The notes: generated by a model from the letters alone, not told the origin. A stretch of DNA of 64,000 bases from Schmidtea polychroa (GCA_044892525.1 CM097885.1:5396001-5460000); one strand, 5' to 3'. Numbered from the stretch's first letter, positions 18,531-58,313 are shown. Made by a program: numbers and translations.

Positions 18531-18589
18531 TGTTGAGAGGATGTCAAATGTTAAATATGAAATAACAATTAAATATATTCAAACAAATA

Positions 18590-20199: not shown

Positions 20200-22108
20200 T
20201 AAAATATTCTTTCAATCAACATGAAATTCTTAGAAAATATATGAAAAAATTATTTAGTCAAATTCAATATCATTACAGTAATCATCATCAAAATCTATCC
20301 TATCACTTGATTATTGTAAAAATTCTAATTATTAACCTCATTGAAAATTAATTTTTATTTAAAATTAAAAAACAAGTCAATAAAAATACAGCTAATTATC
20401 AAGAAATTAATTAAATTTACCTTAGAAATTACATTAAAACCTTAAATTTTTAAATATTCTTTCAATCAACATGAAATTCATAAAAATTATAGAAATTCAC
20501 AAAAATGATAGAAATTTAATTGAATATTTACTAAATCCATCAACTCTAAAAACACCAAATTTGCCTAAATAAAATTATCAAAACACACCAATACCCTTAC
20601 GACTAGTACCCTTACGACCAGTACCCTTATGACCAGTACCCTTATGACCAGTACCCATAGGGGTCAAAACATCTTGTCGGACAAACTCAAAGTATATATA
20701 ATAAAATGAATTAACTCCATCTAATTTATCATTGAATCATTCAAATTATCACAAATTTTGAAAAAAAATATTATTCTAAAGTGCTAAGCAATTGTAGGAT
20801 AAAAATGAAAAGAGGATTATTTTTTCATAAACTTTGATAAACTAACAATATTATTCTAAAGTGGTACGAATCTTCATTAAAGTGAGGAAATTATTCATTA
20901 CTCTATGATAAATTAATAATTCAAATGGATGAAAATAAGTGGTAGAATTATTCATTAATGGAAGCTATAATTGATTAATTGTCGATCATCGCGTCTGTGT
21001 GTGCTTTTTACTTTCTTTGTTTTTGGGTTGCGTGCGCACACAGACGCGTTAATTGTGAAAATGATTTTGTGAATTGAAGTATGTGTGCGTGTGTATGTGT
21101 GTTATAATGTCAGCGATATGTAACTGGCTTGTATATATTACAATCAATTAACACCTTGATTTGGAACTGATACATACGTTGGAATTTGGTTTTTTGCTGG
21201 ATTCGAATTAGTGTTTTTGTGTTTTTACGGATCGATTTAAGTTTTGAGTGAGTTTGGATCGTTTTGGAATCTTGAGTTTTGGAATTTTTTGAAATTACTG
21301 TACTTTTGCCAAATATATGATTTTAAATCAAGTTTTTCTGAGACTTCTCTAGTGGATTTAATTATATATATGATTTCAAATCAAGTTTTTGAGATTTCGC
21401 CAGTGGATTTAATTATCAAATCAAATGATCATGCTATTCAACGCGACAGGGGCGTTTACATATCTCAGAATGGTAAATGGGTGACGTGCAAGGATGGATT
21501 TATTGAAACACTTGAATCTGATAACTCAATGGCAATTGGAAATACTAAAAACAAAACTGATGGTTCCTTTTTTATGACTCCAAGAGATCCTGATAACTTT
21601 AATTGTGTTTTTGGTCAACTAATATCAAATTTATTTGGTGTATTGCTGCCGCAGGATTTTAGATTCGATTCGATTACATGTTTCAACAGATTTCGACAAG
21701 TGATTGCACAATAACTCAAAATGTTTCGCCAACATCCTCAGAAAGTACAGCACCAAAATCGGCATCTCTACCAAAATCCTCATCCCCGAAAGCTATTCGT
21801 TCGAGAAGTTCCTCTATCATGTTCATTCATTATTTGCCATTTGCAAATGAAAATTGCGGGACAATTAAACAATAATTGCTAAATGAAAATATATTGAGAA
21901 GTGGCATAGATAAGATGCTTATATATTAATTGATTTAATTAAAATTATTTTTCTAAAAATTATCACTTTAATAAAAATATTTTTAAAAGAAATTAATGTG
22001 GGGATGATATAAGTGATAATAATTAGTGGAATATCGGGGGGAATATAAGTGATTAAATAGTGAAATATCAAGAATCGGGGAGAATTTAAGTGAGGAGGAT
22101 ATATAATT
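20200..22108 (+). mobile_element. Older, diverged copy of element-B arm sequence (left flank of Polinton A)
   Basis: Colinear similarity to about 37200-38405: the tacccttacgaccag repeats and tgtcggacaaactcaaagtata, gaatcttcattaaagtgaggaaatta, gagaagtggcatagataag, and gaggatatataatt. It carries an extra segment of about 0.93 kb at 20965-21895. The left boundary is approximate. Confidence 0.8.
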
Positions 22109-22772
22109 AGTAGTGTGGTTATATACCCAACCAAAACAGCCCTCCCAACAAAACATGCCTCCAAATCACTTAAGCTATTAGAAAAACAACCTAAAACTTA
22201 TACTTTTATAGTATTTTAACCCTATATTTTGAAAACAACCACCCTTAATGACTCTAACTGTTTTAATCTTTAAAGCCTCAAACTCAAAAGCCTCAAACTA
22301 AAAACATAAAGAGAATAGAAAAGAAAATGGTATTATGAAAAAGTTAGAAGGCTACTTGAGGATGCCAACTAGCAAGTTGCTAATTGGCTAATTAAAAAAA
22401 ATAAATGAAATCTTAATCTTGATGTCTTGAAGAATAAAAAATTTTATGAAAATAGTAAAACTGCTCTGAGAGGACAGTGGTTTTTTTTTTTTTTTTTTTT
22501 TTTCACTGTCCTCTCAACAGTTTTTTTTTGATCCGGATCATTTTTTTTTATTTCAACCTCTTTCGTTTATCAAATCTCTTCCAATATACAAGCTGGCCAG
22601 ACTCATACATCAGAATCAATTCGATAATAGCAGCACACCTTACTATTCGCTTCTCGCTCACGAAGTCGATTTCATCGGCGTTTTAAGTGTGCTGCTCGAA
22701 AGTACAAATGAATTCGAAAGTGAATCCGAAAGAGGTCCGAAAACAACCGAGAAATAAATGTGCACATTAAAG
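22109..22772 (+). repeat. Left terminal inverted repeat of Polinton A
   Basis: Reverse complement of 55994-56593, apart from an indel of about 60 bp at about 22515-22575 and few substitutions. Confidence 0.92.
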
Positions 22773-22777
22773 GTGCA

Positions 22778-25700
22778 CATGAAAAAGGTCAAATTATAGT
22801 TTTATAAGTTATTTTTATTCAAATGGTACAGATTGAGCCTCCTTGGCTGAGAGGGTTTACGACAAATGTCAATCAGGATTGTTTTGAGATATCCAAATAT
22901 ATATTACAATCATTTGAGGCTTTTTTTATTAAGAGCTGACTATTATTTCCATTTTAATAAAAGATGTATCATTAAGTCATTGCACTGTTTTCTATTTAAC
23001 ACTTATTTTTGACAATGTCTTTTTCAAGTTCATCCTTTGCACACCATTTCCAGTATAGATTCTTTAAGCAAACAGCAGAGAAGGCTCATATATCAAGCTA
23101 AATATACTATATAAACATGTATTATGGGAAATGGCAGAGCAGCAAGGATGAAGTATTACAATTATACACCGATTCTAAACTCTTAGAGACTACAGTAAGG
23201 GGAAAACATATTATAATTAAACGTTGAATTCGGGTTGTATGTTTGTTGTGTGAGTTCTTCTTTCCAACCGTTTATTGGTTCTATTTTGCCTTTGAAAATA
23301 ATGATATCATTAGAATATTTATTTCCTACCTTTTTGTGATGGGGTTGAAAGGAAGGTTGACAGAATGAAAGTAAAAGGTATATTCATGTCTAACTCCTTC
23401 GGTAATAGACTTGATATATAAAATGTGGTATAAAGTGGTATAAAGTACGATATATATGGGGATGTTCGAGGAACATTTCACAGCTGAAATGTGGCGAAAT
23501 TTATAAGAATATAAAAGAAAGAATCTTATATTAAAATAAATATTTTGTTGTTAATTGTGACACAGATCATCGAACAATGTCTAAATCTTCAAACCTCGGG
23601 AAAACTAGCATAGGATGCGATTGCGCATTGGTTGTCCTTGTCTTTGCTCATCCAGATGTATCCGTTCATTCCCCATTTTGAACTCCAGCTGTTTTTCACG
23701 ATCCAATAATTATCCAATACGTTTGTGCCGTATCCTACGACCAATACTGCATGGTCAATAATTTGAGAACAGTTTGGATCGTTATAAACTCCTGATCTAA
23801 TTATTTACATGATTTATCAACTACTTTCTATAAAAGGTTTTACTTATATAACTGAAACTTCCTCGATACACTAATTGCAACCGATATTGGTCCTTCGTTG
23901 GCCACTGCAATCGCTAAACTCTCTTCATTATTATTTATTTTTTTGTATCCATTGACAGAGGTGACCACTTTCGAACGATTGAACATGCAATTGAGTTTCT
24001 ATAAATATAAAATCAAATCAAATAGTAAGATAAATAATTTGATAGACCCCCCCCCTTCCGTCAGACATAAAAATTAATGCTTTTAATGTTAAATTGCTTT
24101 TTTTATCATAAAATGTTGAACATCTCCAATACAATGATAAAGTGAAGGTTACATCATTGCTTACAGAAAGGGGAGGCTCTGAGTCCATTTTGTATTACGA
24201 AACACTAACTAGGTTAAGTCAGCACTTTGAATAAATAATTGGAATATTCTCAGGTTTTCTGATTGTTCTTTTTCTTATATATTATAAACGTTATCATCCG
24301 ACAAAATTAAGTATATAATAATTATGTAATAAAAATAACACTTGATAAAGGCAGCGCTGAAAGTTTGTGTTAAATCGACAACAATATTGATCAACAGTTG
24401 AAATGAGGATAATTGAAATTTCAAATGAAAATAGAAACAGGTCCAGGTGAAGTAAAAATAAATATTCTTTTATATAAGTAAATATTATTTTCAACTTAGG
24501 AAAATTTTATTTCATAAATAGATTAATAAAATTGTTAATTTTTCATTTTACCAAAAATTTGGTCTAGATAATCAGTTTTACAGAAACATCAAGGCCAGCG
24601 ACATATTTAACAGTTTATCACTCTTATGTCAAGATTTCTATGCCACCCTCTTCACAATTCAAAATACATATTGACAATCACAAATGTTGTCATAAGTTAT
24701 TTTAAGAAGAGAATCCAGTATCAGTCTGTTTTATTAAAAAGTGAAAATAATTAAAGTATAGTGGGTTTATTAGTTTAAACCAGCCATGGCCAACCGGTGG
24801 CCCGCGAAGCGTTTTGATGTGGCCCGGACACAATTTTAAACATCAAATCAATAATTGTCTTTTTTAGAATTCATATTCGAATTAAGCATGTTTTTAATTA
24901 AAAAAATTGATTCTATGTTTACTTGAATCGTAAAAACGAGTTATATTTATTTAAATGAATTTATTGTGGCCCGTGATAGTATTTCCTTTCGATTGATTTG
25001 GGTTGGTCACCACTGGTTTAAACTTTAATAACATAATGATTAGAAATGTGACAAATCTATGATGGGGCCTTGTTGGTCTTGTGACAAAACGGCATTGGTA
25101 TAAAAGAGTTTTGGCTTAAAAAATTAGTTAATTTTCGACGAACTGAAAAATGAGGACTCCCTTGGACGACTACAATTCCAACTGTCCGTAAATATTTTCG
25201 GGTCGGTTACTCATCAACGACCATTTAATTTAAATAAAAAAAATATCATAATTTACAAAACAGTAAAAAAAATTAAGTTTTCAGAAACTAGATTGATTCA
25301 CAAAAAGTTATAATAAATTTATTGAATATTACATCCTATGCTACATAACAAAATAAATAAATACAAAAGTTTCTTACTCTTCAATTTTTACAAAAAAAGC
25401 AGAAGAAAAGTGACTAAATATTTGTAAACTATCCTTTTCAAAGGAGGCATTTCCTATGATGGCTAACTTCCTCAAATAGTTCCGTTAAACAAAGTTTTTG
25501 GTTTCGATATTTTTTATCAATTTATTAATCCACACCGATTTTTTACAATAAAATTCTAGCAGAATTTTTAATTTCTTTCGAAAGAACATAAGATATTTTC
25601 GAATTAAATTTTTTTGCAATTTCTATATATTTCTTACATTCTTTCATTTATAACGGATTTAGATATCTTATCATCTATTAATCATTTTGTTTATTTATTA

Positions 25701-26418
25701 ATTATTAATGATTTAAATATTAAAATTACAAATTTATATTAAAACATTTAGAAAACCAATATTAAATATTTCCCAATAGCGCCAGTGGGCAATACAAAAT
25801 GTATTAAAAACTTTCTGAAAGACTTACCCGAATGTTAATGAAAAATGAAATGACTGCTTGCCTATAATAACTCATTTAAACAAAATTATATTTTTCATGA
25901 ACCTTTAATAAAACGAACATTTTACCTACTTTAGCTTTGTAAGGATAATCCTGTTCTGACTCTATTCCTCCAAGTGTCATAATATCAATAAATGCTGTAT
26001 TCATCCAACCTCCGTTACATCCATTATTACTTTCGCTACAATCTATTAACTGCTGTTCTGATAAACTGACCAAACGTCTAGTCTTGCGAAAATATTGACC
26101 TTCCAAAGATCCTGTTGTTGAAAATGCCCAACAGCCTCCACAGGCACCCTAAGGACAAAATTTACATGAAGAATAAATAATAAAATGTAAAATTATGAAA
26201 TTTATTAGTAAATATCCTTTCGCATTAAATATGCAAAAGCTTGAAAACTAATGTTTTAAAATTTGTGTTAAATAAATAGAAATATTGATCAGAAATGAAG
26301 ATGAAGGAAATTGAAAATAAAAATCGATCAATGGTGAAAAGAATTAAATAGCTACTGTAAGTCAATTATATAATACTTGATAAAGGCAGTGCCGAAAATT
26401 TGTATTGAATAGGAAATT

Positions 26419-26456
<38 letters not shown>

Positions 26457-26526
26457 TTTGATCTTTTGTCATAATGAAAATATTAAAACATCGAAAGCAG
26501 ATAAAAACATTAAATATATATATATA
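22778..26526 (-). pseudogene. Inverted partial duplicate of the cathepsin L locus (part of intron 1, exons 2-4, 3' flank) inside the left TIR of Polinton A
   Basis: Near-identical reverse complement of about 58120-61968. Exons at 26148-25930, 23998-23844 and 23796-23589; exon 1 is absent. Confidence 0.93.
24781..25015. mobile_element. hAT-type MITE with 8-bp TSD (copy inside the duplicated cathepsin intron 2)
   Basis: Ends cagccatggccaacc / ggttggtcaccactg; TSD GTTTAAAC at 24773-24780 and 25016-25023; internal tggccc motifs. Confidence 0.8.
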
Positions 26527-26602
26527 ACTAACCTCAGATGTGATTTGAACCGCTATCCATTTGAACCACTGTGGCGGTCTATTCCCACTGCGCCATCAAG
26601 GT
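26527..26602 (-). ncRNA. Candidate tRNA-like Pol III small RNA (copy 1b; terminator lost at the duplication junction)
   Basis: Minus strand reads accttga TGGCGCAGTGG gaatagaccgccacagtggttcaaatggatagc GGTTCAAATC acat ctgaggt tagt: A box and B box with tRNA-like spacing. Confidence 0.5.
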
Positions 26603-26752
26603 TTGAATTTTTGTCATTTTTTAAATTTTTAATTTATAAAAAAATAAAATAAAATAAAATAAATAAAATAAAATATACAAGTACTTTATAAATATAAGAT
26701 ACCCACACTATTTTCAATATTATTTTCAAATTTTTAATATTATTTTATGTTG

Positions 26753-26835
26753 AAAAAAAAACTAACCTCAGAAGTGATTTGAACCGCTAGCATTTTGAAC
26801 CACTGTGTCAGTCTAGCCCACTGCGCTATCAAGGT
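26753..26835 (-). ncRNA. Candidate tRNA-like Pol III small RNA (copy 1a, left)
   Basis: A box TAGCGCAGTGG, B box GGTTCAAATC, terminal pairing accttg/tgaggt and oligo-T terminator; mirror of 55686-55768. Confidence 0.55.
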
Positions 26836-26941
26836 TTGGATTTTTTGTCATTTTTTAAATTTTTATTATAAAAAATGAATAATATAAATCTTAAAAAATA
26901 AAATGAAAACAGGGTATCCAATAAAAAATCTTTTTCTAAAA

Positions 26942-29900
26942 ATGAATTGTAATATTTGTAATAAAGTTTTTTAAAATAAAACTGGATTAATTTCTCATTT
27001 AAAATCGAAAGCTCATTTATTAAAAGAAAATAATCTTAATGATACAAATTCAAAACTTTGTCTTAAATGTAAAGGAAGATTTCTACATTCTGGATATAAT
27101 AAACATTTTGAAAATTGTATCGGGAAAAATAGAGAAATATTTACATGTCCTCATTGTAACTTTTCAACAAAAGTAAATTTCTATTATTTAGAACATATAA
27201 AAGAATGTAAAAATAAAAAACAAAATCCTGACGATGAGGAATGTCATTCAGAAGGAGAACCTGATCATGTTGAAAGAGAAAAATATAACTGGGATGATTT
27301 TAATCATGTAGATGAATTTTAATTAGAAATCAATGGACCTATAACTCCGGGAGAATATATAAATAAAAATAAAAAATATATTAAAAATTCTTTCACTGAA
27401 GCTTTAAAAAATTATAAACCGACAAGGTATAATGTTATAAAATATAAAATTATAATCAAAGCAAAATACTGGCGAGGAGCAGAAGAAAAGACAACACCCT
27501 TAGATGTTGAAATTGGAATACCTTTTAAATATTTATTTTCAATTAAAGGATTTGATAAAACCATCAAAGAAATAATTAAAGCAGCAGAAGCAAAACAAGA
27601 GGAAGTAGAAAATGAATTAGGAGATTCAAACTTAGTATTCAACTCTTTCCAAACTTTAGTGATTGATTATTGGAGAGGATTACCACCCAATCCTAAATCT
27701 TATATTCCTACACCCTTTAAATCTAAAAATGTTATAAATGTACAGAATAATGATAACAAATGTTTCATCTGGTCAATACTTGCACATTTACATCCTCAAG
27801 CAACAAATCCCCAAAGAGTTTCAAAATACAAACAATATGAAAATGAATTAATATTTCCCAAAGGATTCAAACACCCAATGAAACTAGAAGACATTCCAGA
27901 ATTTGAAAAATTAAATAATCTTAAACTTAATATTTATGAACATGTTATAGGGAAAGAAATTATTCCAATTTATATTTCAGATAGTGGAACCAAGGATAAC
28001 GGAGCACAGGACAACGAGATATATCTTTTAATCTTGGAACAAGAAAATAATCAACATTATGTTTTAATAAAAAACTTTCAAGCTTTTACATCTCCAGAGA
28101 ATCCAACTAGTGGAGGAGGAACATGTAAAAGATGTCTTCATTATTCAACAACTAAAAACTCTATGATTAAACATACAAGATTTTGTGAAAAAGATGATCC
28201 AGCTTTAATTAAAATGCCTAATAATCCCAAGATGTATTTTAAAAACTTTTCAAATTTACTACAAACAGTTGGAGTTCTTTATGGTGACTTTGAATCTATA
28301 AACCATAAACAAGATTTGGTTTATCAATATTTAAAAATAATAGAAAAAAATAAACTCATGGATTTATGGAACTCCTCAGGAGAGAAGATGAAACCAGAGA
28401 GGATGAAAGCCTTTCTAAGAAAAAGAAATAAACCTAATAGTGTTAAAAAAACTAAACAATTACCATCTGCTTATAAATTATTATTTAAAAGTAATTATCC
28501 TGAACTCATAGAATCTAGAGAATATTCAATTCTAGGAGGTACCCCTGAAGAAGTCTTGAATCATTTTACTAAAAGTATAAATGATCTAGAACATGAAATA
28601 TTTAAAATATTAAAAACAAAGTATCCTCAAAATATTTCTAATCAACAACAACAAGAATATGAAAATACTTCCAACTGTTGGATGTGTAAACAGAATATTC
28701 TTCCTGATGAAAAAGTTATAGATCATGATCATTTAAAAAAGGAAAATAATTATCGAGGAGCAGCTCATAAAAATTGCAATCTTAATTGCCATACTCCTAA
28801 ATTTATACCTGTTATATTTCATAATCTTTTTGGATATGACATACATCTATTTATTAAACATTTAGCAGCAAATGCTAAAAACTCTTTCAAAGTTATCGGC
28901 TTAACAAAGGAAAAATATAAATCAGTTGAATATGGGAAATTAAAATTTATAGACTCGTTAAACTTTCTTCAAATGTCTCTAGATGGAATAGCTAAAACAA
29001 TGAAACCAGAAGATTTTAAAATCACTCGAGAATTCTTGGAAAAAAATAATATTCCTCTAGAAGAATATCCTACATGTTTAGCAAAAGGAATATATCCTTA
29101 TGACTATGTTGACTCGTTTGAAAGATATAATGAAACAATTCTTCCTAACAAAGAAGATTTCTTTTCAAACTTACTACAATCAGGGATTACAGATCAAGAA
29201 TATTCTCGAGCATTAAAAATGTGGGAATTATTCAAGTGTAAAACTTTAGGAGAATATACCAACATGTATTTATCCTTAGATGTTTATATTCTAGCAGATT
29301 GCTTTGAAGAATTTACAAACTCTTTTGTTCTTAAACCTTATAATTATATAACTGCACCCTCTTTAGCTTGGGATACTATGTTATATACCATTTGGACTTC
29401 AAATATAGAAGAAGCTGATAAAATTATAGATCTTTTAACTAACCTCGATATGTTTAATCTAATTAAAACAAACATTAGAGGAGGAGTCTCTTCAGTAATG
29501 GGGAATAGAGAAATAAAAGCTAGAAATGCAATAACTACTAGCCGAAGACTATCTAAACACCCTGATGATCCATATATGAAAATTAACAATGAGGAATTAA
29601 AAGAATTATTAGAAACAATGAAAAATCCTATATTTATACTTTATATAGATGCAACAGCTTTATATTCAGGAATTATGACTCAATATTTACCAATGAGTGA
29701 TTTCACTGAAATAGAGAACCCAACAGATGACCTTATGAAAGAAATACTTTCAACATCGAAAGATTCTCCAATAGGTTACTTTATAGAATGTGACCTCGAC
29801 TATCCAGATGATATAAAATCAGGAACAAGATATTTTCCTTTAGCTCCCATAAGAAGAAAGATTGATATCAACGAACTTTCTGAATGGCAAATCTCACAAG

Positions 29901-30619
29901 ATAAACCTCCAACAATGAAACTTCTTTGTGATCAAACAGATCGAAGGTTTTATCTTTGTCACTATAGACTCCTCCAATTTTATCTCTCACGAGGAATGAT
30001 ATTAAAAAAAGTTCATAGTGTCATAAGATTTAAACAAGCTCCATTCATGAAAGCTTTTATCGAGGAGAACATTAGGTGTCGAAACATTGCAAAAAGAGAA
30101 GGTAACCTTTTTAAAGATAATAATTATAAAATTTTAAACAATTCAGTATTTGGGAAAACAATGGAGAATGTTGATAAATATACTCATATTGAACTCCTAA
30201 CAAATACTACCAAAGATATTAAGCGTTATAATCGCATGCTAGGAAAGCCTACATTTAAAAACGCACAAGTATTTTCTGAAAATCTTACTGCAGTAGAATT
30301 AAAAAATTATGGGAAAACATATAACAAACCAATATTTATAGGGTTTACAATTTTAGAACTTTCAAAATTACAAATGTATGAAACATATTATAACATCTTA
30401 CAACCTATATACAGAGCAAATATATCAATGCATGCAATGGATACAGATTCAATGTTTTTAACAATAAGAACTCATGATTTACAAAAAGATATGAAAGAAA
30501 ATCCTATACTTTCAAATTTAATAAATTCATCTGGAGAACTATTTTCGTTTAAAGATGAAAAACCTTTTACTCCTATAGAAAATGGAATATTTATTCGTGC
30601 TAAACAATATTCATACGAA
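26942..30619 (+). pseudogene. polB: Protein-primed family B DNA polymerase, 5' part (zinc fingers, exonuclease with EndoVII-like insert, polymerase motifs A-C); disrupted
   Basis: ATG 26942 is in frame with ORF 27659-30628, with in-frame TAA stops at 26972 and 27320. Motifs DFES, FHNLFGYD, YIDATALY, KILNNSVFGK, DTDS, and CWMC...DHDH...RGAAHKNCN. Interrupted by element B after codons Y-E. Confidence 0.93.
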
Positions 30620-30736
30620 AGTAGGTAGATAGTAGCCCACTGCAGCAATGACCCCCCCCCCCCGGGGGGGGGGGGTTCTGCTGCAACTTTTTTTTTGCTG
30701 CAACTTTTTTTTGCTGCAACTTTTGATTACGCAATT

Positions 30737-31690
30737 TTTCAGACTATAGTGAGGGGGTCTCGATGGTCCTGGGATTTTCAATACAAAAAAATTTTTTCAA
30801 TACAAAAACGATGGTCCTGGGATTTTCAATACAAATAAAATTTTTTCAATACAAAAAGGCGGTCTCACTAAAAAAGCATGGAATTTTCAGACTATAGTGA
30901 GGGGGTCTCGATGGTCCTGGGATTTTCAATACAAAAAAAATTTTTCTATACAAAAACGATGGTCCTGGGATTTTCAATACAAAAAAAATTTTCTATACAA
31001 AAATCCGACTACCAATAAAAAAGCAAGGATTATTCACGCTATAGTGAAGGGGTCTCGATGGTCCTGGGATTTTCAATACAAAAAAAATTTTTCTATACAA
31101 AAATCCGACTACCACTAAAAAAGCATAGAATTTTCAGACTATAGTGAGGGGGTCTCGATGGTCCTGGGATTTTCAATACAAAAATCCGACTATCAATAAA
31201 AAAGTCAAGGATTTATCAGACTATAGTGAGGGGGTCTCGATGGTCCTCGGATTTTCAATACAAAAAAAAATTTTTCTATACAAAAACGATGGTCCTGGGA
31301 TTTTCAATACAAAAAAAATTTTTCAATACAAAAACGATGGTCCTGGGATTTTCAATACAAAAATCCGACTATCAATAAAAAAGTCAAGGATTTATCAGAC
31401 TATAGTGAGGGGTTCTCGATGGTCCTGGGATTTTCAATACAAATAAAATTTTTTCAATACAAAAACGATGGTCCTGGGATTTTCAATACAAAAAGCTGGT
31501 CTACACTAAAAAAGCATGGTAATTTAAGGTCTCAGGATATTTTCAATACAAAAAGCTGGTCTACACTAAAAAAGCATGGTAATTTAAGGTCTCAGAATAT
31601 TTTCAATACAAAAATCTGGTCTACACTAAAAAAGCCAAGGATTTTTCAGACTATAGTGAGGTGAGTCTCCTTGGTCCTGAGAAATATGTG
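30737..31690 (+). repeat. Subterminal modular repeats of element B (gactatagtgagggggtctcgatggtcctgggattttcaatacaaaa)
   Basis: The ctatagtga module recurs about 7 times on the left, and the ggtcctgggattttcaatac sub-module more often; only about 3 mirrored copies lie at about 46165-46520. Confidence 0.9.
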
Positions 31691-31714
31691 GTCTACACTA
31701 AAAACGTGGTAAAT

Positions 31715-32360
31715 TTTTCAATTAAAGTAAATAATGGTTCTAAAAAATTAAATTACAGTAAATTATGGCTCAAATTTTTAAATTACAGTAAATTATGGTC
31801 CAAATTTTTAAATTAAAGTAAATTATGGTTCTAAAAATTAAATTAAAGTAAATTATGGCTCAAATTTTTCAATTACAGTAAATAATGGTTCTAAAAATTA
31901 AATTACAGTAAATAATGGTTCTAAAAATTAAATTAAAGTAAATTATGGTTCTAAAATATTAAATTACAGTAAATTATGGTCCAGATTTTTCAATTAAAGT
32001 AAATAATGGTCCTAAAAAATTAAATTACAGTAAATTATGGTCCAAATTTTTCTATTACAGTTAATTATGGTCCTAAAAAATTAAATTAAAGTAAATTATG
32101 GCTCAAATTTTTCAATTACAGTAAATAATAGTTCTAAAAATTGAATTAAAGTAAATTATGGTTCTAAAAATTGAAATTACAGTAAATTATGGTCTAAAAA
32201 TTGAAATTACAGTAAATTATGGTTCTAAAAATTAAATTAAAGTAAATAATGGTTCTAAAAATTGAATTAAAGTAAATTATAGTTCTAAAAATTAAATTAA
32301 AGTAAATTATGGTCCTAAAAAATTAAATTAAAAGTAAATTATGGTCCAAATTTTAAAATT
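31715..32360 (+). repeat. About 30-31-bp tandem minisatellite (aattacagtaaattatggttctaaaaatta); mirrored at about 45485-46160
   Basis: About 20 degenerate tandem units visible. Confidence 0.9.
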
Positions 32361-32714
32361 AAGTAATCAATGGTAAAAAATTTTAAATAAGTAAATTAAA
32401 GTAATAATTTTTAAATTAAGTAATCAATGGTAAAAAATTTTAAATAAGTAAATTAAAGTAAGATTTTAAAAATTTAATTACAAAAAGTTGAAGGTGTTTG
32501 AGAATTGAAATTTTTTAATGAAAATTTTTATGAAATATTTTTCAATGGTAATTTTTTATGGAAATTTTTATGAAATATTTTTCAATGGTAATTTTTAATG
32601 AAAATTTTTATGAAATATTTTTCAATGATAATTTTAGATGGAAATTTTTAAGATAACTTTTAATGAAAATTTTTATGAAATATTTTTCAAAGACAAATTT
32701 TAATAATAATTCAA

Positions 32715-33880
32715 CAACAAACCAACAACTTAGTACCAACAACCAGTAACTTACGAACATGTAGTTACAACCAGATACCTACAACTAGTTACTAACAACT
32801 AGTTACCTGCTACCAAGTACTTACAACTAGATACCACGTACTAACTAACTCTCAAACAACCAGATACTTACAACCAATTACCACCTACCCATTAACTAGC
32901 TACAACCAGCTAACTAGGTACCTGATACCAAGTACTAACAACCAGTTACCAACTACTAAGCACCTACAACCACCTACAAAGTACATATAACCAACCAACT
33001 AGGTACTAGATACCAAGTACTTGCAACCAACATCAACCAGGTACTAAGCATTAATTACCAACTACTAAGTACCTACAACCACCTACCCATTAACTAGCTA
33101 CAACCAGTTAACAGCAACCAACCAACTACCAAGTACTAACAACCAAAAACAAGCAACCAACTAGGTACCAAGCATCATCAACTAGATACCAAGTACCTTC
33201 AACCAACTAGCTACCACCTACCAATTAACTAGCTACAACCAGCTAACTAGGTACTAGATACCAAGTACTAACAACCAGTTACCAACTACTAAGCATTAAT
33301 TACCTACAACTAGTTACTAAAAACTAGTTACCTGATAGCAAGTACTTACAACTAGATACCACGCACTAACTAACTCTCAAACAACCAGATACTTACAACC
33401 AGTTACCAACTACTAACTACCTACAACCACCTACTAAGTACCAACAACCGACAACAACCAAGTACTAAGCATTAATTACCACCTACCAAGTACTAACAAC
33501 CAACAACAACCAGCTAACAACTAACTACCACCTACCAAGTACCTACAACCAACTACCAAGTACCAAGTACTAACAACTAGGTACCAGATACCAAGTACTA
33601 ACAACCACCAACAACCAGATACCTACAACTAGTTACTAACAACCAGTTACCTGCTACTAAGTACCTACAACCAACTAGCTACCACCTACCAAGTACCAAC
33701 AACCACCTACCCATTAACTAGCTACTAAGTACTAACAACTAACTACCACCTACCAAGTACATACAACCAACATCAACCAGGTACTAAGTATTATCAACCA
33801 AGTACTAACAACCAAGTAACTTACCTAGTACTAAGCACTGTCAACTAGATACCAAACACTTACAACCAGATGACCACATG
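32715..33880 (+). repeat. C/A-rich shuffled short-word repeat; G/T-rich mirror at about 43965-45130
   Basis: Recombined words such as accaagtact, aacaacc, ccagatac and aactagtt, with strong strand asymmetry. Confidence 0.85.
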
Positions 33881-34312
33881 AAATTATTGGTTAAATATGA
33901 AAATAAGGGTTATAATTAGTTGTTTAGTAAATTATGGTGTAAAATTAAGTAATAAAGGATAAATAGGCAAATTAAGGATAAGTAAATTAAAGTTAAAAAT
34001 TTTAAATAAGTAAATTAAGGTTCAAAATTTTAAATTAAAGGAAACAATGGTTTAAATTTTATATTAAAGCTAAATGAATAAATTAAAGTAATAATTTTTA
34101 AATAAGTAATGTAATAAGTAAATTAAACTAAGATTTTTAAATTTATTAACAAAAAATAGAAGGTGTTTGAGAATTGAAATTTTTTAATGAAAATTTTTAT
34201 GAAATAATTTTTAGGATAATTTTTAATGAAAATTTTTATGAAATATTTTTTAAGTTAATTTTTAATGGAAATTTTAATGGAATAATAATAATAATAAAAA
34301 TAATAATAATAG

Positions 34313-34343
<31 letters not shown>

Positions 34344-34761
34344 TCAACAGTTACCAACAATCGGTTACTAAATATTTTTAACTAGGTGCTAACAAATACT
34401 TACAACATGATACCACGTACTAACTAACTCTCAAACAACCAGATACTTACAACTAACTACTAAATATTCTTCACTGTATTTTATGAAATGCTTTTTAAAT
34501 TAATTTTTTATCTATCTACAAAAATATATTTAATTACAATCATTAGAAAAACCTTTTCAAATTTAACAAAAATGTTGATTTTCATCAAAAAACCACAACT
34601 CATCACCACGTGAAATTCAAAATAATTTAAATTACAATGAAAGACTAATGAATTCTAATTTACAAAACATTCTTCTTTTAAATGATAACTACTGACTTAT
34701 TATTGCAATGTAAAAATTGCATTCAATAAATACTTATTGTTGATCAGTTTTATTATATATA

Positions 34762-37700
34762 CTCTGAGTTTATCCGACAGGATGTTTTGACCCCCTAAGG
34801 GTACAGGTCGTAAGGGTACTGGTCGCAAGGGTACTGGTCGTAAAGGTACTAGTCGTAGGGGTATTGGTAACACTCAACCACAACCTACCCATTAACTAGC
34901 TACTAAGTACTAACAACCAGTTACCTGATACCAACTACTAACAACCACCATCAAAACCCATCGAGAAATTAACAAATATCAACCTACAACTATATAACAA
35001 CAACCAATAAACAACACTGTACCAACTACCATATACAAGATACCAACAACTTAGTACCAACAATCAACTAACCACACATAAAAATAATAGCAATTAAATA
35101 CAAAATACTCTTCATCACATACACTATTTTCTTATCAAAATCTAAAAAGTCAACCAACTACTTACAACCAACAACTATGTACTAACAAATTGATCTTTAA
35201 AAGCAAATACTCATCACTTGAAAAATTAGATGGAAAATTAATTGAACTCAAGGCATCAATAACTTGATAAAAATTGATTAAATTATTGTAAAAAATTTAA
35301 ATTATTCGAAATAAATATCATAAAAATTTAATTAATGGACAAGAAAAAATTCTAATCATCCAATAAATAAAAAAAAATGCTGATCATTCAAGTTGAATCA
35401 ACTAAGATAATAAATTAATAAGATAAGATCTAGTAGATAATTGATTTAGATTGAATAAATTATTTGAAATAAAATTAATTTTAAGTATTTTTTTTAAAAG
35501 TAATACATGTACTCAAATCTATTTACTAATTCCTCAATATATTCAAAAAATCAGTATGAATTCATTAAAATTATCAAAGTCAGCAATCTACAATAAAAAT
35601 AATTATCATTAAATTCCAAAAGAGACTAGATAACTAATGATAACATCTAACAAACCAGTAAATTCATTTAAATAATTGGTATATTCAAGCGAATTCTCTA
35701 ATAAAATCATCTAAAAAGAATCATTTTCCCTGAAATATATCAATATTTAAAGATTGGTATCTTATCGATAAGTACTTGTTAAAGATCATATATTCACCTC
35801 GAACTAACAAGATTCCTTAAAATCCCTCAAATGACTATATTTCTACCCTTAATTCGTATTATTACAAATATTTCACTAAAATCATCTAAAAAGCATCAAA
35901 TTTCCCTGAAATAACTATATCTTTAAAGATTAGTATTTTATCGATAAATATCCTTAAAAGGTTATATATTTACCTCTGACTAATAAGATTGCTTAAAATC
36001 CCTTTTTATCACGAATATTTCCTTATAAAACATGTAAAATCATTAACCCTAAAGAATTTATAAAATCTAATGACAAAACCGGTTATAATAAAATTTTTGT
36101 TAATCACTGTAAATTTTTGTAAATCACTGTACTCGAAATTTAAAATAAATATAACTGACTAGGTCCCATTGAAAGATTAAATTTATCCATTCAATAAAAT
36201 ATATTTCTTCAAATGATCATTTTACCGATATTCAACCGATTTAATTACTAATTAAAATCAAGATTTCTTCCAATAAAGATCAATTTTATTTAGTTGTCGA
36301 TGTTTTAAATCAATATTTCTCAACTTTTGTCGTTGTCCGTCTAAATAAAGATAAAAATAATTTAAAGTTGATATCAATCCCAATTATCTGTAAAGTTTTC
36401 ATCGTCAAAACCAAGTAAATCGATCATTATCCCTACTTAATAAAACATTGTTCTAAAATAATTTACTATGCATTAATCACAACCTAATAAAACGATATAA
36501 TTATTATTGATTCATAACTGACTAATGTATTGCAATTTCCTTAAAAAACATTGATATTTTACCAACATCACCCTTAAAAAATCATATATTCCCATCGAAA
36601 CCCTTCCCTCATTAAAAGCAACCGACTATATCTCCCTCACAATAATATATTCCCATCTTAACCCATCTCACATTAAATCTAACCGACTATATCCCCTTAA
36701 AAGATCATATTTTCCCCATCTTAACCGACCTCTCATTAAATCTAACCAACAATATCCCATCTTAACCGATCTCTCATTAAATCTAACCGACTATATCCCT
36801 TTAAAAATCGTATATTCCCATCTTAACCCATCCCTCATTAAATTTAATAACCGACAATATCCCATCTTATCCAATCTCTCAGCAAATATTTCTACCCTTT
36901 TAAACATCTAACCGAATATATCCTTCAATTCTACCCACTTGAATCCTCCTTTAATTCAATTCAGTCTTAAAATCTTTAAAGAACTTCAAAAATATGACTT
37001 AATTGTTATAGACACCAAATATTCTTCCATTGAAATAATTTAGTAGCTATGTAGTAAGAGTTCACTAAAAGATCAAAAATCAATATTTTCTACAAATATT
37101 TACCATCAAATACTGGAGATGATATATATTGATTGATCATAATTCTTCATCGATTCAACCAATCATTTTCAAGTAAGTTAACTGGTTTCTTAGCTCATGT
37201 TTTTTAAAGTTCATCAATGAGTAAATATTCTTAGAAAAATATTGAAAACATTATTTAGTCAAATACATTACAAAGTTATCATCAAAAATCACTTAATTAT
37301 TAACCTAATTGTCAATGAAATTAATTTTTATTTAAAAACTATTCAATAAAATACAACTAATTATCAAGAAATTAATTAAATTTATCATAGAACTAACTTT
37401 AAATATTCATTCAATAAACATGAAATTCACAAAAAACGATAAAAATTCACAAAAATAATAGAAATTCACAAAAATAATAGAAATTCACAAAAATAATAGA
37501 AATTCACAAAATTGATAAAAATTCACAAAAAACGATAAAAATTCACAAGAATGATAGAAATTCACAAGAATGATAAAAATCCACAAGAATAATAGAAATT
37601 CACAAGAATGATAGAAATTCATAAAAATGATAGAAATTCATAAAAATGATAGAAATTCACAAAAAAGATAGAAATTTACTTGAATAAAACCATCAACTCT

Positions 37701-37865
37701 AAAAATTATCAATGAATGCCTTATACAAATTTGCCTAAATAATCATTCAAATAAAAACATTAAATACCTTTACAACTAATACCCTTGCGACATGTTGAAT
37801 GTGAGTAGTACCCTTGTGAGCAATACCCATAGGGGGACAGAATATTTTGTCGGATAAACTCAGAG
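34762..37865. mobile_element. TA-flanked non-autonomous TIR element nested in the arm of B (mirror at 39979-43082)
   Basis: 18-bp perfect TIR ctctgagtttatccgaca / tgtcggataaactcagag, flanked by TA on both sides, with subterminal 15-bp repeats (gggtactggtcgtaa). Confidence 0.65.
37420..37680 (+). repeat. 19-bp tandem repeat (aaattcacaaaaataatag); mirror at about 40165-40425
   Basis: About 13 tandem units. Confidence 0.9.
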
Positions 37866-40800
37866 TATATATTAATTAACTCATTTTTCATTGAATTAGT
37901 CAAATTATCATAAATTTCGATAAAAAATCTAAAGTGGTAAGCAATGTAAAGAGAAATATTCTTTAAACTTTGATAAAATTAACAATGAAGGTGGTAAGAA
38001 TCTTCATTAAAGTGAGGAAATTACTCGATGATAAATTCAAATGGGTGAAAATAATTGGTAGAATAATTCATTAATGGAGGTAAATAATGAGAAGTGGCAT
38101 AGATAAGAAGAAGGTTGATAAAAATGTAAATATATTAATTGAATTTATTTAAAATTATTTCATAAAATTCATAAATTTAATAAAAAAAACTTTTAAAACA
38201 AATATTTGTGGGGAATAATTAATCAAAATCGGGGGGATATTAGTGATTAATTAATGGAAAATAGAGAATCGGGGAATATAAGTGAATAATTAATGGAAAT
38301 TCTAGGGAATACAAATGATTAAATAGTGGAAATCGGGGGAATATAGGAGATTAAATAGTGGGATAATGAGAATCGGTGGAATATAAGTGAGAAGGATATG
38401 TAATTTAAACTATTTTATTACATAACAAGCCGTGACTAGTTTATTACATAACAAGCTGTGAATAGTATTTTATTGAAAATTATTGATTAGGTCTTTTTTT
38501 TTTAATTTTTGAATAGGTACTTTAATACCTTAATAATTTAAATGTTTTGATTTACACTAATTAATTTCTAAATCAATTACCATTTTCAATCAATATAAGT
38601 TAATATTCAAATATAAGTCTTCGAAAATATAAATTTTATAAGTAAAGCTTTTTTAAATAAATTTAAATAAGAAATTAATTTATTACCAGTTATATACTTT
38701 AAAACTTTTTTATGTAATAAGACAAAAATTTTGTTGTATAAGTCCTTTAATATTGTAATAATTATTTATTAATAAATTTATTATTCTACACTAAATATTT
38801 CAAAAACAATTATCATATTATTAATTATATTACTCCTTTCAATAAAAATAAGATAAATATTCAAATAAATGACTTATAAAATACAATTAAAATTAAATTC
38901 TTTACACGAAATTTAAAAATATAAATTTTATAAGAAAATGTGAATAAGAAATTGATTTATTAACAGTTATAGACTTCTTAAACTTAATGATGAAATTAGG
39001 TAATAGAAAGTAATTTTTCTTTTTAAAAAGTCCTTTAATATTGTATTCTATTCATTATTAAATTTACTATTTTACACTAAAATATTTTAATTTAGAAAAA
39101 AAAAATCATCATAATATTGAATATAATACTTCAATCAAAATAAGTAAATACTCAAATATATGTCTTATAAAATACAATCAAAATTTAATATTTCACTAAA
39201 TTTTAAGTAAAGTTTTTTAAATTCTCAAATAAATGTTAACACGATATTAATTTATTAATCATTATATACTTTTTAAACTTATTATTGGAATAAAACAATA
39301 GAATGATATTGAAAATATATACAATTTAAAAATACAATAAAAATTAAATTACATACTAGGTAAAATGTTGGTAAAATCCCGTTCACAGCTTGTTATGTAA
39401 TAAACTAGTCACGGCTTGTTATGTAATAAAATAGTTTAAATTACATATCCTTCTCACTTATATTCCACCGATTCTCATTATCCCACTATTTAATCTCCTA
39501 TATTCCCCCGATTTCCACTATTTAATCATTTGTATTCCCTAGAATTTCCATTAATTATTCACTTATATTCCCCGATTCTCTATTTTCCATTAATTAATCA
39601 CTAATATCCCCCCGATTTTGATTAATTATTCCCCACAAATATTTGTTTTAAAAGTTTTTTTTATTAAATTTATGAATTTTATGAAATAATTTTAAATAAA
39701 TTCAATTAATATATTTACATTTTTATCAACCTTCTTCTTATCTATGCCACTTCTCATTATTTACCTCCATTAATGAATTATTCTACCAATTATTTTCACC
39801 CATTTGAATTTATCATCGAGTAATTTCCTCACTTTAATGAAGATTCTTACCACCTTCATTGTTAATTTTATCAAAGTTTAAAGAATATTTCTCTTTACAT
39901 TGCTTACCACTTTAGATTTTTTATCGAAATTTATGATAATTTGACTAATTCAATGAAAAATGAGTTAATTAATATATACTCTGAGTTTATCCGACAAAAT
40001 ATTCTGTCCCCCTATGGGTATTGCTCACAAGGGTACTACTCACATTCAACATGTCGCAAGGGTATTAGTTGTAAAGGTATTTAATGTTTTTATTTGAATG
40101 ATTATTTAGGCAAATTTGTATAAGGCATTCATTGATAATTTTTAGAGTTGATGGTTTTATTCAAGTAAATTTCTATCTTTTTTGTGAATTTCTATCATTT
40201 TTATGAATTTCTATCATTTTTATGAATTTCTATCATTCTTGTGAATTTCTATTATTCTTGTGGATTTTTATCATTCTTGTGAATTTCTATCATTCTTGTG
40301 AATTTTTATCGTTTTTTGTGAATTTTTATCAATTTTGTGAATTTCTATTATTTTTGTGAATTTCTATTATTTTTGTGAATTTCTATTATTTTTGTGAATT
40401 TTTATCGTTTTTTGTGAATTTCATGTTTATTGAATGAATATTTAAAGTTAGTTCTATGATAAATTTAATTAATTTCTTGATAATTAGTTGTATTTTATTG
40501 AATAGTTTTTAAATAAAAATTAATTTCATTGACAATTAGGTTAATAATTAAGTGATTTTTGATGATAACTTTGTAATGTATTTGACTAAATAATGTTTTC
40601 AATATTTTTCTAAGAATATTTACTCATTGATGAACTTTAAAAAACATGAGCTAAGAAACCAGTTAACTTACTTGAAAATGATTGGTTGAATCGATGAAGA
40701 ATTATGATCAATCAATATATATCATCTCCAGTATTTGATGGTAAATATTTGTAGAAAATATTGATTTTTGATCTTTTAGTGAACTCTTACTACATAGCTA

Positions 40801-43500
40801 CTAAATTATTTCAATGGAAGAATATTTGGTGTCTATAACAATTAAGTCATATTTTTGAAGTTCTTTAAAGATTTTAAGACTGAATTGAATTAAAGGAGGA
40901 TTCAAGTGGGTAGAATTGAAGGATATATTCGGTTAGATGTTTAAAAGGGTAGAAATATTTGCTGAGAGATTGGATAAGATGGGATATTGTCGGTTATTAA
41001 ATTTAATGAGGGATGGGTTAAGATGGGAATATACGATTTTTAAAGGGATATAGTCGGTTAGATTTAATGAGAGATCGGTTAAGATGGGATATTGTTGGTT
41101 AGATTTAATGAGAGGTCGGTTAAGATGGGGAAAATATGATCTTTTAAGGGGATATAGTCGGTTAGATTTAATGTGAGATGGGTTAAGATGGGAATATATT
41201 ATTGTGAGGGAGATATAGTCGGTTGCTTTTAATGAGGGAAGGGTTTCGATGGGAATATATGATTTTTTAAGGGTGATGTTGGTAAAATATCAATGTTTTT
41301 TAAGGAAATTGCAATACATTAGTCAGTTATGAATCAATAATAATTATATCGTTTTATTAGGTTGTGATTAATGCATAGTAAATTATTTTAGAACAATGTT
41401 TTATTAAGTAGGGATAATGATCGATTTACTTGGTTTTGACGATGAAAACTTTACAGATAATTGGGATTGATATCAACTTTAAATTATTTTTATCTTTATT
41501 TAGACGGACAACGACAAAAGTTGAGAAATATTGATTTAAAACATCGACAACTAAATAAAATTGATCTTTATTGGAAGAAATCTTGATTTTAATTAGTAAT
41601 TAAATCGGTTGAATATCGGTAAAATGATCATTTGAAGAAATATATTTTATTGAATGGATAAATTTAATCTTTCAATGGGACCTAGTCAGTTATATTTATT
41701 TTAAATTTCGAGTACAGTGATTTACAAAAATTTACAGTGATTAACAAAAATTTTATTATAACCGGTTTTGTCATTAGATTTTATAAATTCTTTAGGGTTA
41801 ATGATTTTACATGTTTTATAAGGAAATATTCGTGATAAAAAGGGATTTTAAGCAATCTTATTAGTCAGAGGTAAATATATAACCTTTTAAGGATATTTAT
41901 CGATAAAATACTAATCTTTAAAGATATAGTTATTTCAGGGAAATTTGATGCTTTTTAGATGATTTTAGTGAAATATTTGTAATAATACGAATTAAGGGTA
42001 GAAATATAGTCATTTGAGGGATTTTAAGGAATCTTGTTAGTTCGAGGTGAATATATGATCTTTAACAAGTACTTATCGATAAGATACCAATCTTTAAATA
42101 TTGATATATTTCAGGGAAAATGATTCTTTTTAGATGATTTTATTAGAGAATTCGCTTGAATATACCAATTATTTAAATGAATTTACTGGTTTGTTAGATG
42201 TTATCATTAGTTATCTAGTCTCTTTTGGAATTTAATGATAATTATTTTTATTGTAGATTGCTGACTTTGATAATTTTAATGAATTCATACTGATTTTTTG
42301 AATATATTGAGGAATTAGTAAATAGATTTGAGTACATGTATTACTTTTAAAAAAAATACTTAAAATTAATTTTATTTCAAATAATTTATTCAATCTAAAT
42401 CAATTATCTACTAGATCTTATCTTATTAATTTATTATCTTAGTTGATTCAACTTGAATGATCAGCATTTTTTTTTATTTATTGGATGATTAGAATTTTTT
42501 CTTGTCCATTAATTAAATTTTTATGATATTTATTTCGAATAATTTAAATTTTTTACAATAATTTAATCAATTTTTATCAAGTTATTGATGCCTTGAGTTC
42601 AATTAATTTTCCATCTAATTTTTCAAGTGATGAGTATTTGCTTTTAAAGATCAATTTGTTAGTACATAGTTGTTGGTTGTAAGTAGTTGGTTGACTTTTT
42701 AGATTTTGATAAGAAAATAGTGTATGTGATGAAGAGTATTTTGTATTTAATTGCTATTATTTTTATGTGTGGTTAGTTGATTGTTGGTACTAAGTTGTTG
42801 GTATCTTGTATATGGTAGTTGGTACAGTGTTGTTTATTGGTTGTTGTTATATAGTTGTAGGTTGATATTTGTTAATTTCTCGATGGGTTTTGATGGTGGT
42901 TGTTAGTAGTTGGTATCAGGTAACTGGTTGTTAGTACTTAGTAGCTAGTTAATGGGTAGGTTGTGGTTGAGTGTTACCAATACCCCTACGACTAGTACCT
43001 TTACGACCAGTACCCTTGCGACCAGTACCCTTACGACCTGTACCCTTAGGGGGTCAAAACATCCTGTCGGATAAACTCAGAGTATATATAATAAAACTGA
43101 TCAACAATAAGTATTTATTGAATGCAATTTTTACATTGCAATAATAAGTCAGTAGTTATCATTTAAAAGAAGAATGTTTTGTAAATTAGAATTCATTAGT
43201 CTTTCATTGTAATTTAAATTATTTTGAATTTCACGTGGTGATGAGTTGTGGTTTTTTGATGAAAATCAACATTTTTGTTAAATTTGAAAAGGTTTTTCTA
43301 ATGATTGTAATTAAATATATTTTTGTAGATAGATAAAAAATTAATTTAAAAAGCATTTCATAAAATACAGTGAAGAATATTTAGTAGTTAGTTGTAAGTA
43401 TCTGGTTGTTTGAGAGTTAGTTAGTACGTGGTATCATGTTGTAAGTATTTGTTAGCACCTAGTTAAAAATATTTAGTAACCGATTGTTGGTAACTGTTGA

Positions 43501-43531
<31 letters not shown>

Positions 43532-46500: not shown

Positions 46501-46660
46501 AGACCCCCTCACTATAGTGTGATAAAAAAAAATTTGGACTAAAATTCCCTGAAAGCAAAAAAATGAGTTGGGAACAATTGCGTAATAAAAATTTGGGAAC
46601 AAACCCCCCTCCCCCCCCCGGGGGGGGGTAATTGTTCCCGTGGGCTACTATCTACTTACT

Positions 46661-50308: not shown

Positions 50309-50330
50309 TTTGTATTTTAAAACTTCATAT

Positions 50331-55359: not shown

Positions 55360-55443
55360 TTTTATATATAAAAGTTGATAAAAATAAAAGTTGAAAAAAA
55401 AATAAAAATAAAAGGGAATTCAATAAAAAAATAATTTATAAAA

Positions 55444-55692
55444 ATGATTGACTTTATTGAAAGAATGAGAAATGAATTGAATGAAGTTAAACTTAAGAGA
55501 ATGAAAAGAAGAGAAGAAGAACCATTAGAATACATTAAAGAGTTGGTGGTAGAGAATGAAAAGTATCGACATTTTTACATGAATGCAGTAGAAGTAGCTG
55601 AAAAAAGATTAGATAAACTAAAACAATTACAGGAAAGAATAAAAGAACTTGAATCGATTATTTTAAAAAATGACAAAAAATCCAAACCTTGA
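55444..55692 (+). CDS. Small charged coiled-coil protein, 82 aa
   Basis: aaaATG start, divergent from the capsid gene; heptad-like E/K/L pattern; no recognisable family. Confidence 0.55.
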   Translation: MIDFIERMRNELNEVKLKRMKRREEEPLEYIKELVVENEKYRHFYMNAVEVAEKRLDKLKQLQERIKELESIILKNDKKSKP

Positions 55693-55768
55693 TAGCGCAG
55701 TGGGCTAGACTGACACAGTGGTTCAAAATGCTAGCGGTTCAAATCACATCTGAGGTTAGTTTTTTTTT
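55686..55768 (+). ncRNA. Candidate tRNA-like Pol III small RNA (copy 1a, right)
   Basis: accttga TAGCGCAGTGG (A box, 55693-55703) ... GGTTCAAATC (B box, 55736-55745) acat ctgaggt tag, then T9; about 72-nt tRNA-like layout. Confidence 0.55.

Positions 55769-58020: not shown

Positions 58021-58313
<293 letters not shown>

Follow-up and report, generated by a model that had tools for sequence, protein, structure and literature searches.

A truncated, inverted copy of a neighbouring cathepsin L gene in the left end of a Schmidtea polychroa Polinton, and its possible origin by host repair

A Polinton and the cathepsin L gene beside it

The window analysed here is a 64,000-nucleotide stretch of the Schmidtea polychroa genome (GCA_044892525.1 CM097885.1:5396001-5460000) that contains no N (count 0). 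It holds a 34.5-kb element, A, which measures ~14.7 kb once a second element, B, and a passenger of host DNA (the cargo) are subtracted. The parts of A are as follows.

22103..22108, no strand: left TSD of A, ATAATT (the same hexamer stands at 56594-56599)
22109-56593: Polinton A, with AGTAGT...ACTACT ends and the 6-bp TSD ATAATT
22109..22772, + strand: outer left TIR, beginning AGTAGT and pairing with 56593-55994
26636..26859, + strand: inner left TIR, 2 substitutions in 224 versus 55885-55662
27323..30619, + strand: 5' part of the protein-primed PolB (PF03175, E 1.2e-12)
30620..46660, no strand: element B, a palindromic 16,041-bp insertion in PolB with AGTAG/AGTAA ends and the TSD TACGAA
51799..52647, + strand: packaging ATPase (PF04665, E 1e-8)
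52659..53963, - strand: retroviral-type integrase (PF00665, E 7.2e-12) with an N-terminal PLA2-like domain (PF08398, E 3.7e-9)
54067..55419, - strand: double jelly-roll major capsid protein (PF21738, E 1.1e-26)
55662..56593, - strand: right TIR, ending ACTACT, in which 55886-55993 has no left counterpart

The proteins were assigned by a Pfam domain scan of A's ORFs that covered four of the Polinton ORFs. Because A encodes PolB, an integrase, a packaging ATPase and a double jelly-roll capsid protein, and carries long TIRs, AG...CT ends and a 6-bp TSD, its sequence identifies it as a Polinton/Maverick, a group described as expanded in Dugesia in the available part of one report (10.64898/2025.12.11.693146). 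A 174-aa ORF (49844-50368) is a by-eye candidate for an adenain-like protease, with no Pfam family and no relevant PDB match. B is gene-less, has Polinton-like ends and differs between its arms by 20 substitutions in 7011; with its PolB split by the 16-kb B, A is predicted to be polymerase-defective. The left and right flanks of A form one continuous B-like sequence in the same orientation, and these collinear flanks, together with the TSD, indicate that A inserted as a unit and that the region was not inverted. When metagenome contigs were searched for other copies of A with a 20-nt TIR pattern, four loci were returned, all of which were rejected as chance matches because their identity to the window spans just 20-24 nt.

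Beyond the right end of A lies a gene of four exons (57297-57695, 58584-58802, 60748-60902 and 60950-61157) that encodes I29 (PF08246) and Peptidase_C1 (PF00112) domains. Its product has a propeptide and the residues Q133, C139, H273 and N293, so that the sequence identifies it as a cathepsin L of papain family C1A (Gln, Cys, His, Asn), with a frame broken at codon 58 by an in-frame TAA at which two relatives (P0001 and P0002) have Tyr. The TAA is either a nonsense allele or a consensus error. One relative (79%) could be aligned to human procathepsin L, and the relatives also include a cathepsin L of Dugesia (51% over the exon 1 part); the gene's own intact allele was absent from the results of two protein searches.

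The inverted copy and its junctions

Part of this gene is present a second time, inverted, within the left TIR of A. The features of the cargo and of its donor are these.

22773..22780, + strand: junction 1, a direct repeat of 22760-22767 (5 non-donor nt, then a donor-shared CAT)
22778..26526, - strand: cargo, copied in inverse orientation from 58116-61968 and differing by 6 substitutions in 3748, a 14-bp deletion and a shorter TA tract
23589..23796, - strand: copy of the coding part of exon 4 (His, Asn, stop), identical to 60950-61157 (Peptidase_C1, E 4.1e-23)
23844..23998, - strand: copy of exon 3, identical to 60748-60902, with borders that agree with a spliced contig of public run X7
24771..25012, no strand: MITE in the copied intron 2 (approximate limits), with the 8-bp TSD GTTTAAAC and a 14-bp deletion relative to the donor
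25930..26148, - strand: copy of exon 2 (catalytic Cys), identical to 58584-58802 (Peptidase_C1, E 2.6e-28)
26515..26526, no strand: junction 2, where six TA repeats overlap the element by 1 nt, from the alignment
26526..26625, - strand: extra left-end tRNA-like unit whose T-run was lost at junction 2, ~90% alike to 26760-26859 and 55662-55761
57297..57695, + strand: donor exon 1 (N-terminus, I29 propeptide, oxyanion Gln), uncopied, with the in-frame TAA at 57468-57470
58116..61968, + strand: donor segment (end of intron 1, exons 2-4, 3' flank), from self-BLAST and alignment

Self-BLAST of the window matched 22778-26456 to 61968-58276 on opposite strands at 99.4% identity, and a global alignment extended to 58116 gave 3742 matches, 6 substitutions and one 14-bp deletion within the MITE. 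The copy is 3749 bp against 3853 bp in the donor, at 99.8% identity over aligned sites; an inner (TA)n tract has 13 repeats in the copy and 58 in the donor, which makes the copy 90 bp shorter there. None of the differences falls in an exon, exons 2, 3 and 4 being identical letter for letter, and ~800 bp of 3' sequence separates the copied exon 4 from junction 1. The donor segment lies 1523-5375 bp past the right end of A and 31.6-35.4 kb from the break. Because introns are kept in the cargo, copying occurred at the DNA level and a retrocopy was rejected; the MITE with its 8-bp TSD is also present in both copy and donor. The reverse direction, with the copy as parent, was rejected, since exon 1 occurs in the donor and contigs support the flank of the donor. 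The collinear arrangement of TSD and flanks led us to reject an inversion with staggered breaks.

At junction 1, the left TIR matches the right one as far as 22772, and 22773-22780 exactly repeats 22760-22767; the repeat closes with CAT, and it is with these three letters that the donor match opens. A 3-nt overlap with a CAT end is expected at 1.7% of random flank positions, although that end was made by the insert itself, so the test is not independent. At junction 2 the copy ends six repeats into a (TA)51 tract. There it meets an extra 100-bp unit, ~90% like the inner unit of the TIR, for which the right TIR has no partner at the corresponding place; junction 2 has removed the T-run that trails the other two tRNA-like units. 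By eye, the extra unit contains A/B-box-like words, and ARAGORN called no tRNA in it. The outer left TIR otherwise differs from 56593-55994 by one substitution in 600, a 63-bp left-only segment and a 1-bp homopolymer gap, and 108 bp of the right TIR are missing from the left. With 108 bp missing and the cargo gained, the event is an insertion with deletion; the element sequence lost at the break was probably at least 108 bp, a lower bound. Capture by the integrase was rejected, as both junctions are internal and lack a TSD.

In the assembly, these results confirm the main structural points of the preliminary description, which had reported ~3.75 kb from ~1.5-5.4 kb beyond A inverted inside its left TIR, DNA-mediated copying with introns and the MITE retained, and the loss of exon 1, which our exon comparison bears out. 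Its account of the junctions, a locally templated repeat with a CAT overlap at one and a (TA)n tract at the other, likewise holds at assembly level, the only level at which the junctions are confirmed.

The copy had also been said to hold all catalytic residues of the protease. Cys, His and Asn are retained, but the Gln of the KDQG motif, the oxyanion-hole residue of papain-family proteases, is the last codon of exon 1 and was lost with it, as were the propeptide, signal peptide and start codon. The codon that precedes the copied exon 2 is an in-frame TAG and the first Met is residue 49 of 193, downstream of the catalytic Cys at residue 6, so there is no translation start ahead of that Cys. 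Upstream of the copied exon 2, one consensus pattern run over the minus strand from 30700 to 26150, a weak test, found no strong splice donor, and Pol III reading through from the cut tRNA-like unit would encounter a T5 run after 23 nt, well short of exon 2 at +382. Judged from these sequence features, an active protease from the copy is unlikely.

Public-run contigs and the origin of the copy

Nineteen public runs were listed as matching, none of them recorded as RNA, and four were examined as assembled contigs (X1, X3, X5 and X7); X7 is RNA by guess, and the other three (3/3) were not so guessed. The contig rows comprise 32 of 29,516 pieces, 15 of 50 joints and 24 of 1,176 loose ends. Contigs of X7 skip intron 3 and, at the border of exon 2, show a loose end resembling exon 1, in agreement with the donor's exon borders. 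Since these spliced contigs carry X5-type alleles as well as the exon-1-like end, they report another allele of the parent gene.

The allele comparison points to a local template. The copy differs from the X5 allele at 37 of 2246 sites (1.65%, in three contig pieces) but from the donor in cis at 0.16% (Fisher p 6e-11), and this roughly tenfold closer match indicates that the template was this haplotype. From that match we infer that A inserted before the copying took place. Divergences, whose comparison had been proposed in the preliminary description, give neither order nor date: copy versus donor (0.16%, CI 0.06-0.35), the TIRs (0.36%, 0.08-1.06) and the arms of B (0.29%, 0.17-0.44) are indistinguishable (p 0.21 and 0.30), and inverted repeats are no clean clock.

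Median depth of the cargo bins was ~2,800-4,300x below that of the TIR bins in X1, X3 and X5, with TIR and non-repeat cargo bins chosen by the analyst and depth being summed contig depth, not copy number; the MITE had very high depth. No look-alike of the cargo was found in an index of other windows (0), among which 31 windows of the same genome were annotated. The cargo thus appears from its sequence and depth to be unamplified and low-copy, the product of a local, recent event. The ratio of edge to shared depth, expected to be 0.81-0.91 if the segment is duplicated and 1.00 if it is single, was 0.65 in X1, 1.19 in X3 and 0.96 in X5, a mixed outcome in which the X3 value leans towards a single copy. 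At position 24628, X5 and X7 have the letter of the copy and X3 that of the donor; X1 has no contig over this position, its next contig beginning at 24629, and a break of this kind is what the presence of both letters would lead one to expect. In X3 and X7, the sequence beyond loose ends at 22769 resembles that of the right TIR. Together, the reads indicate a local, unamplified origin if the copy is real, and do not prove that it is.

Our preferred explanation, at a probability of roughly 0.6, is that the left end of A broke once the element was in place and was mended by host gap-filling repair templated on the neighbouring gene. A would have inserted 703 bp upstream of the cathepsin L gene, and a later break or stalled fork in its left end would have engaged the host repair machinery. 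The broken end may then have slipped back 13 nt and re-copied 8 nt, by polymerase-theta or MMBIR-type repair, and the new CAT end may have primed on the donor, from which a processive polymerase would have copied 3.75 kb until it was stopped by the (TA)51 tract and the copied strand was joined to the other end of the break; synthesis in the opposite direction is equally possible. No integrase step would be necessary, and chromosomal closeness would suffice for the choice of donor. The product would probably be a single-copy, 5'-truncated passenger that yields no active protease.

Several observations accord with such repair: the TSD stands in collinear flanks, 3.75 kb of host DNA lies inverted between two TIR-homologous blocks, the junctions have 1-3 nt overlaps and a flank-templated insert, and the termini and TSD are intact. 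POLQ repair typically leaves short inserts whose template lies a few bases into the flank, according to the accessible part of one source (PMC5068794), and long AT/TA tracts are described as stalling replication forks in the parts seen of two others (PMC11797062, PMC12972899). Gap-filling Pack-TIRs are recognised, in the available text of PMC8277862, by a donor in cis, a single copy, microhomology and a small gap. The junction anatomy and the cis allele match therefore support the template switching or microhomology-mediated repair that had been proposed.

Plain proximity accounts less readily for a donor that is placed immediately past the partner TIR and oriented as pairing between the TIRs would predict. 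The broken inner left end may have invaded the right TIR through the tRNA-like unit that is 90% alike, or the TIRs may have been held together; synthesis would have run outwards, skipped 2.35 kb to the TA tract, copied to 61968 and joined the outer left end, where the templated insert was made. Position and orientation would arise by chance with p 0.011-0.016 under 1/distance weighting and 0.061 under a uniform model, both values post hoc, from two simple null models and for the donors visible within the window, and over its first 30 nt the extra unit matches the right-TIR unit exactly. TIR-TIR pairing, which the preliminary description had made the driver, is nevertheless not required by the junctions, neither of which uses TIR homology on the donor side. 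Continuous TIR-primed synthesis is expected to have copied 55762-58115 (2.35 kb: the rest of the right TIR, the TSD and exon 1), and the absence of this sequence from the copy means that an extra jump is needed. Moreover, 2 of 224 sites still distinguish the inner parts of the two TIRs, and ordinary Pack-TIRs as a rule take their donors from within a few kb in the portion of PMC8277862 available. We regard guidance by the TIRs as a minor but real possibility. It is quite unlikely that the copy arose as an assembly artefact, by the joining of a chimeric read or of a wrongly placed segment of the homologous chromosome into the high-copy TIR, although some contig data lean that way. Neither junction is spanned by any of the 32 pieces (of 29,516) listed for the four runs; X1 and X3 each have a 1415-bp contig that crosses 22778 with no branch and carries on into the flank downstream of the donor; the depth in X3 is single-copy-like; and contigs of X1 and X3 mix the letters of the copy (23231, 26341, 26359) with those of the donor (25865 in both, 24628 in X3). 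Contigs prove presence, not absence, however, and graph assemblers easily prune links into repeats thousands of times deeper. The window is also without N, the templated insert at junction 1 is structured, and the two letters at 24628 (copy in X5 and X7, donor in X3) imply that both versions hold real alleles.

Host repair could also have proceeded without long synthesis, if a piece broken at the TA tract, from the sister chromatid or the homologue, was end-joined into the break. Both junctions are of the end-joining type and the copy ends on one side within a long TA tract, a sequence known to be prone to breakage according to the parts seen of PMC11797062 and PMC12972899. Three near-simultaneous breaks would be required, however, the cis donor is intact, and copying accounts at least equally well for a sequence so close to the cis allele; we consider such a fragment very unlikely, while noting that the window sequence alone does not distinguish it from copying. 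An older capture elsewhere, in a cargo-bearing lineage of A of which one copy later landed beside the parent gene, would recall the nematode Mavericks that carry intron-bearing cargo near the left TIR (10.1101/2022.07.12.499685, available part). It is extremely unlikely given the low cargo depth in X1, X3 and X5, the tenfold better match to the cis allele than to another allele, and the absence of look-alike windows from the index searched.

It would be unlikely, in our estimate, that the locus records the birth of Polinton cargo with its parent adjoining, TIR homology having steered repair to DNA beyond the opposite end. If it did, a Polinton would sample the genes it lands beside and load the left-end slot that nematode Mavericks use. 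With its termini intact, the copy might be movable by helpers in trans, as the gene-less B family apparently is, and the orphan exon-2 acceptor (phase 0) could gain a start codon from the flatworm spliced leader, which ends in AUG in the accessible part of its description (PMC9851317). Mavericks carry intron-bearing host genes between species, and how cargo is loaded is not explained in the part of that study available (10.1101/2022.07.12.499685). Because the parent is 1.5 kb away and the junctions are readable, our case suggests that ordinary host gap-filling repair loads Polinton cargo, as in other DNA transposons, and it opens the loading question to a test: where a genome has very many Polinton copies, donor side and orientation can be counted. 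A single truncated, unamplified passenger in a polymerase-defective element represents the first step only. Hence "capture in progress", as the locus had been characterised, overstates a cargo that is unamplified, has no start before the Cys, lacks the oxyanion Gln and sits in an element with an interrupted PolB. The copy looks real, as a one-off recent repair copy of a truncated host gene and a snapshot of how elements may pick up host DNA; it is a lead for a genome-wide test of cargo loading, not evidence of capture under way.

Comparison with known systems

The available text of Tan et al. 2021 (PMC8277862) describes 370 Pack-TIRs in animals, defined as inserts of 100-5000 bp between parts of one TIR element, with >=90% identity to a parent of 80-120% of their length. 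Among 281 unique Pack-TIRs, 56.9% lie <=15 kb from the parent and 67.6% have microhomology, and the authors ascribe single-copy Pack-TIRs to gap filling independent of transposition. By size, identity and length (3749 versus 3853 bp, 99.8%), the cargo falls within this definition, and at 3.75 kb it is about as large as the largest human Pack-TIR reported there (3,585 bp). It resembles Pack-TIRs further in being host DNA inside a TIR element, copied at the DNA level with introns from a parent in cis, with 1-3 nt of microhomology and a small loss of element sequence. Its contig depth in X1, X3 and X5 is low-copy. Unlike them, it is carried by a Polinton, and Polintons/Mavericks are absent from the main text of PMC8277862; also unlike them, the break lies near a terminus 32-35 kb from the parent, though the parent is 1.5 kb from the other end. 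The preliminary description had proposed a route by which Polintons could acquire host genes, and the general route was already described for animal TIR transposons in the portion of PMC8277862 seen.

In the available part of Widen et al. (10.1101/2022.07.12.499685), nematode Mavericks carry intron-bearing, likely host-derived cargo in the interval from the left TIR to the integrase. Like the wasp and krma cargos, ours is an intron-bearing, host-like region in the 2-5 kb range beside the left TIR, and it too is protease cargo. The elements of that study are mobile and horizontally transferred and hold entire genes as cargo, for which that part of the source names no parent locus or capture mechanism, whereas here the parent adjoins, the gene is truncated, the protease is of the papain family and there is no sign of mobility. 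A complete cargo gene of the wasp/krma type is not found, as exon 1 is absent and a TAG precedes exon 2, nor are several mobile copies, given the low-copy depth and 0 look-alike windows in the index. Insect Polintons with kilobase TE passengers, some without polB, are reported as still mobile in the portion seen of another study (10.1101/2025.02.07.637071), but that cargo (LINE, LTR) inserted itself, while ours is a piece of a host gene with repair-type junctions.

As in POLQ or MMBIR inserts, described in the accessible part of PMC5068794, a short flank-templated insert here is primed and resolved by 1-3 nt of homology; POLQ inserts are mostly <25 bp in that source, and a tract of 3.75 kb needs a processive polymerase or a ready-made fragment. 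The literature searched, parts of it in partial text and most subscription journals lying outside its coverage, contained no Polinton with a captured host piece beside the parent. The mechanism class is thus known, and its example in a Polinton seems to be new. On our best reading, the cargo works like a Pack-TIR in a carrier that is not a cut-and-paste TIR transposon, which places it in a wider class, the repair-mediated capture of host DNA by DNA transposons.

Nesting of the elements and other reading frames

Both flanks of A, the Polinton at 22109-56593, match the centre of element B, which is inserted in the polymerase gene (PolB) of A. These matches (21871-22108 and 56698-57002) are collinear and at 70-80%, and because they lie on both sides of A, the nesting order read from the sequence begins with an older B-like relic that received A and ends with the entry of a young B into A. 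The arms of B differ from each other at 20 of 7011 sites. A further B-like piece lies at 62964-63629.

Element B and ORFs outside A
30620-46660: element B, a gene-less 16-kb palindrome with Polinton-type ends and a 6-bp TSD, within PolB of A
16911-18578, minus strand: intronless ORF of 555 aa for an ABC-F-like ATPase, with two ABC_tran domains
6148-7137, minus strand: intact-looking ORF for a Tc1/IS630-type transposase (DDE_3, E 3.2e-28)

Terminal inverted repeats of A and the inner junction of the copy

The left terminal inverted repeat (TIR) of A contains a 63-bp segment (22512-22574), edged by a short TCTC overlap, that is missing from the right TIR; the pattern looks as if the right TIR had lost it by microhomology-mediated deletion. 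Three tRNA-like units were also found.

tRNA-like units, facing outward, with A/B-box-like words
26526-26625
26760-26859
55662-55761

Junction 2, the inner end of the inverted cathepsin L copy in the left TIR, coincides with the T-run of the unit at 26526-26625, and this putative Pol III unit may therefore mark a fragile spot.

The donor cathepsin L allele and the copy

The donor cathepsin L gene, whose ATG lies 703 bp downstream of A, carries an in-frame stop at codon 58 (57468-57470). One possibility is that insertion of A shut the allele down and that it decayed afterwards; the other is that the stop is an assembly error. Two repeat pairs occur in this region, one composed of inverted copies (91%) in intron 1 (57737-58012) and downstream (62501-62771), the other at 59438-59610 and 62206-62379 (94%).

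The orphan exon-2 acceptor of the copy (26148) is in phase 0. Purely as a prediction, addition of an AUG-ending flatworm spliced leader to this exon would supply a start codon in frame and ahead of the catalytic Cys. The copy and its donor segment (22778-26526 and 58116-61968) form a new, near-identical inverted pair, recombination within which could flip the intervening 31.6 kb; alternatively, the pair could act as a source of cathepsin sequence for the small-RNA pools of transposons.
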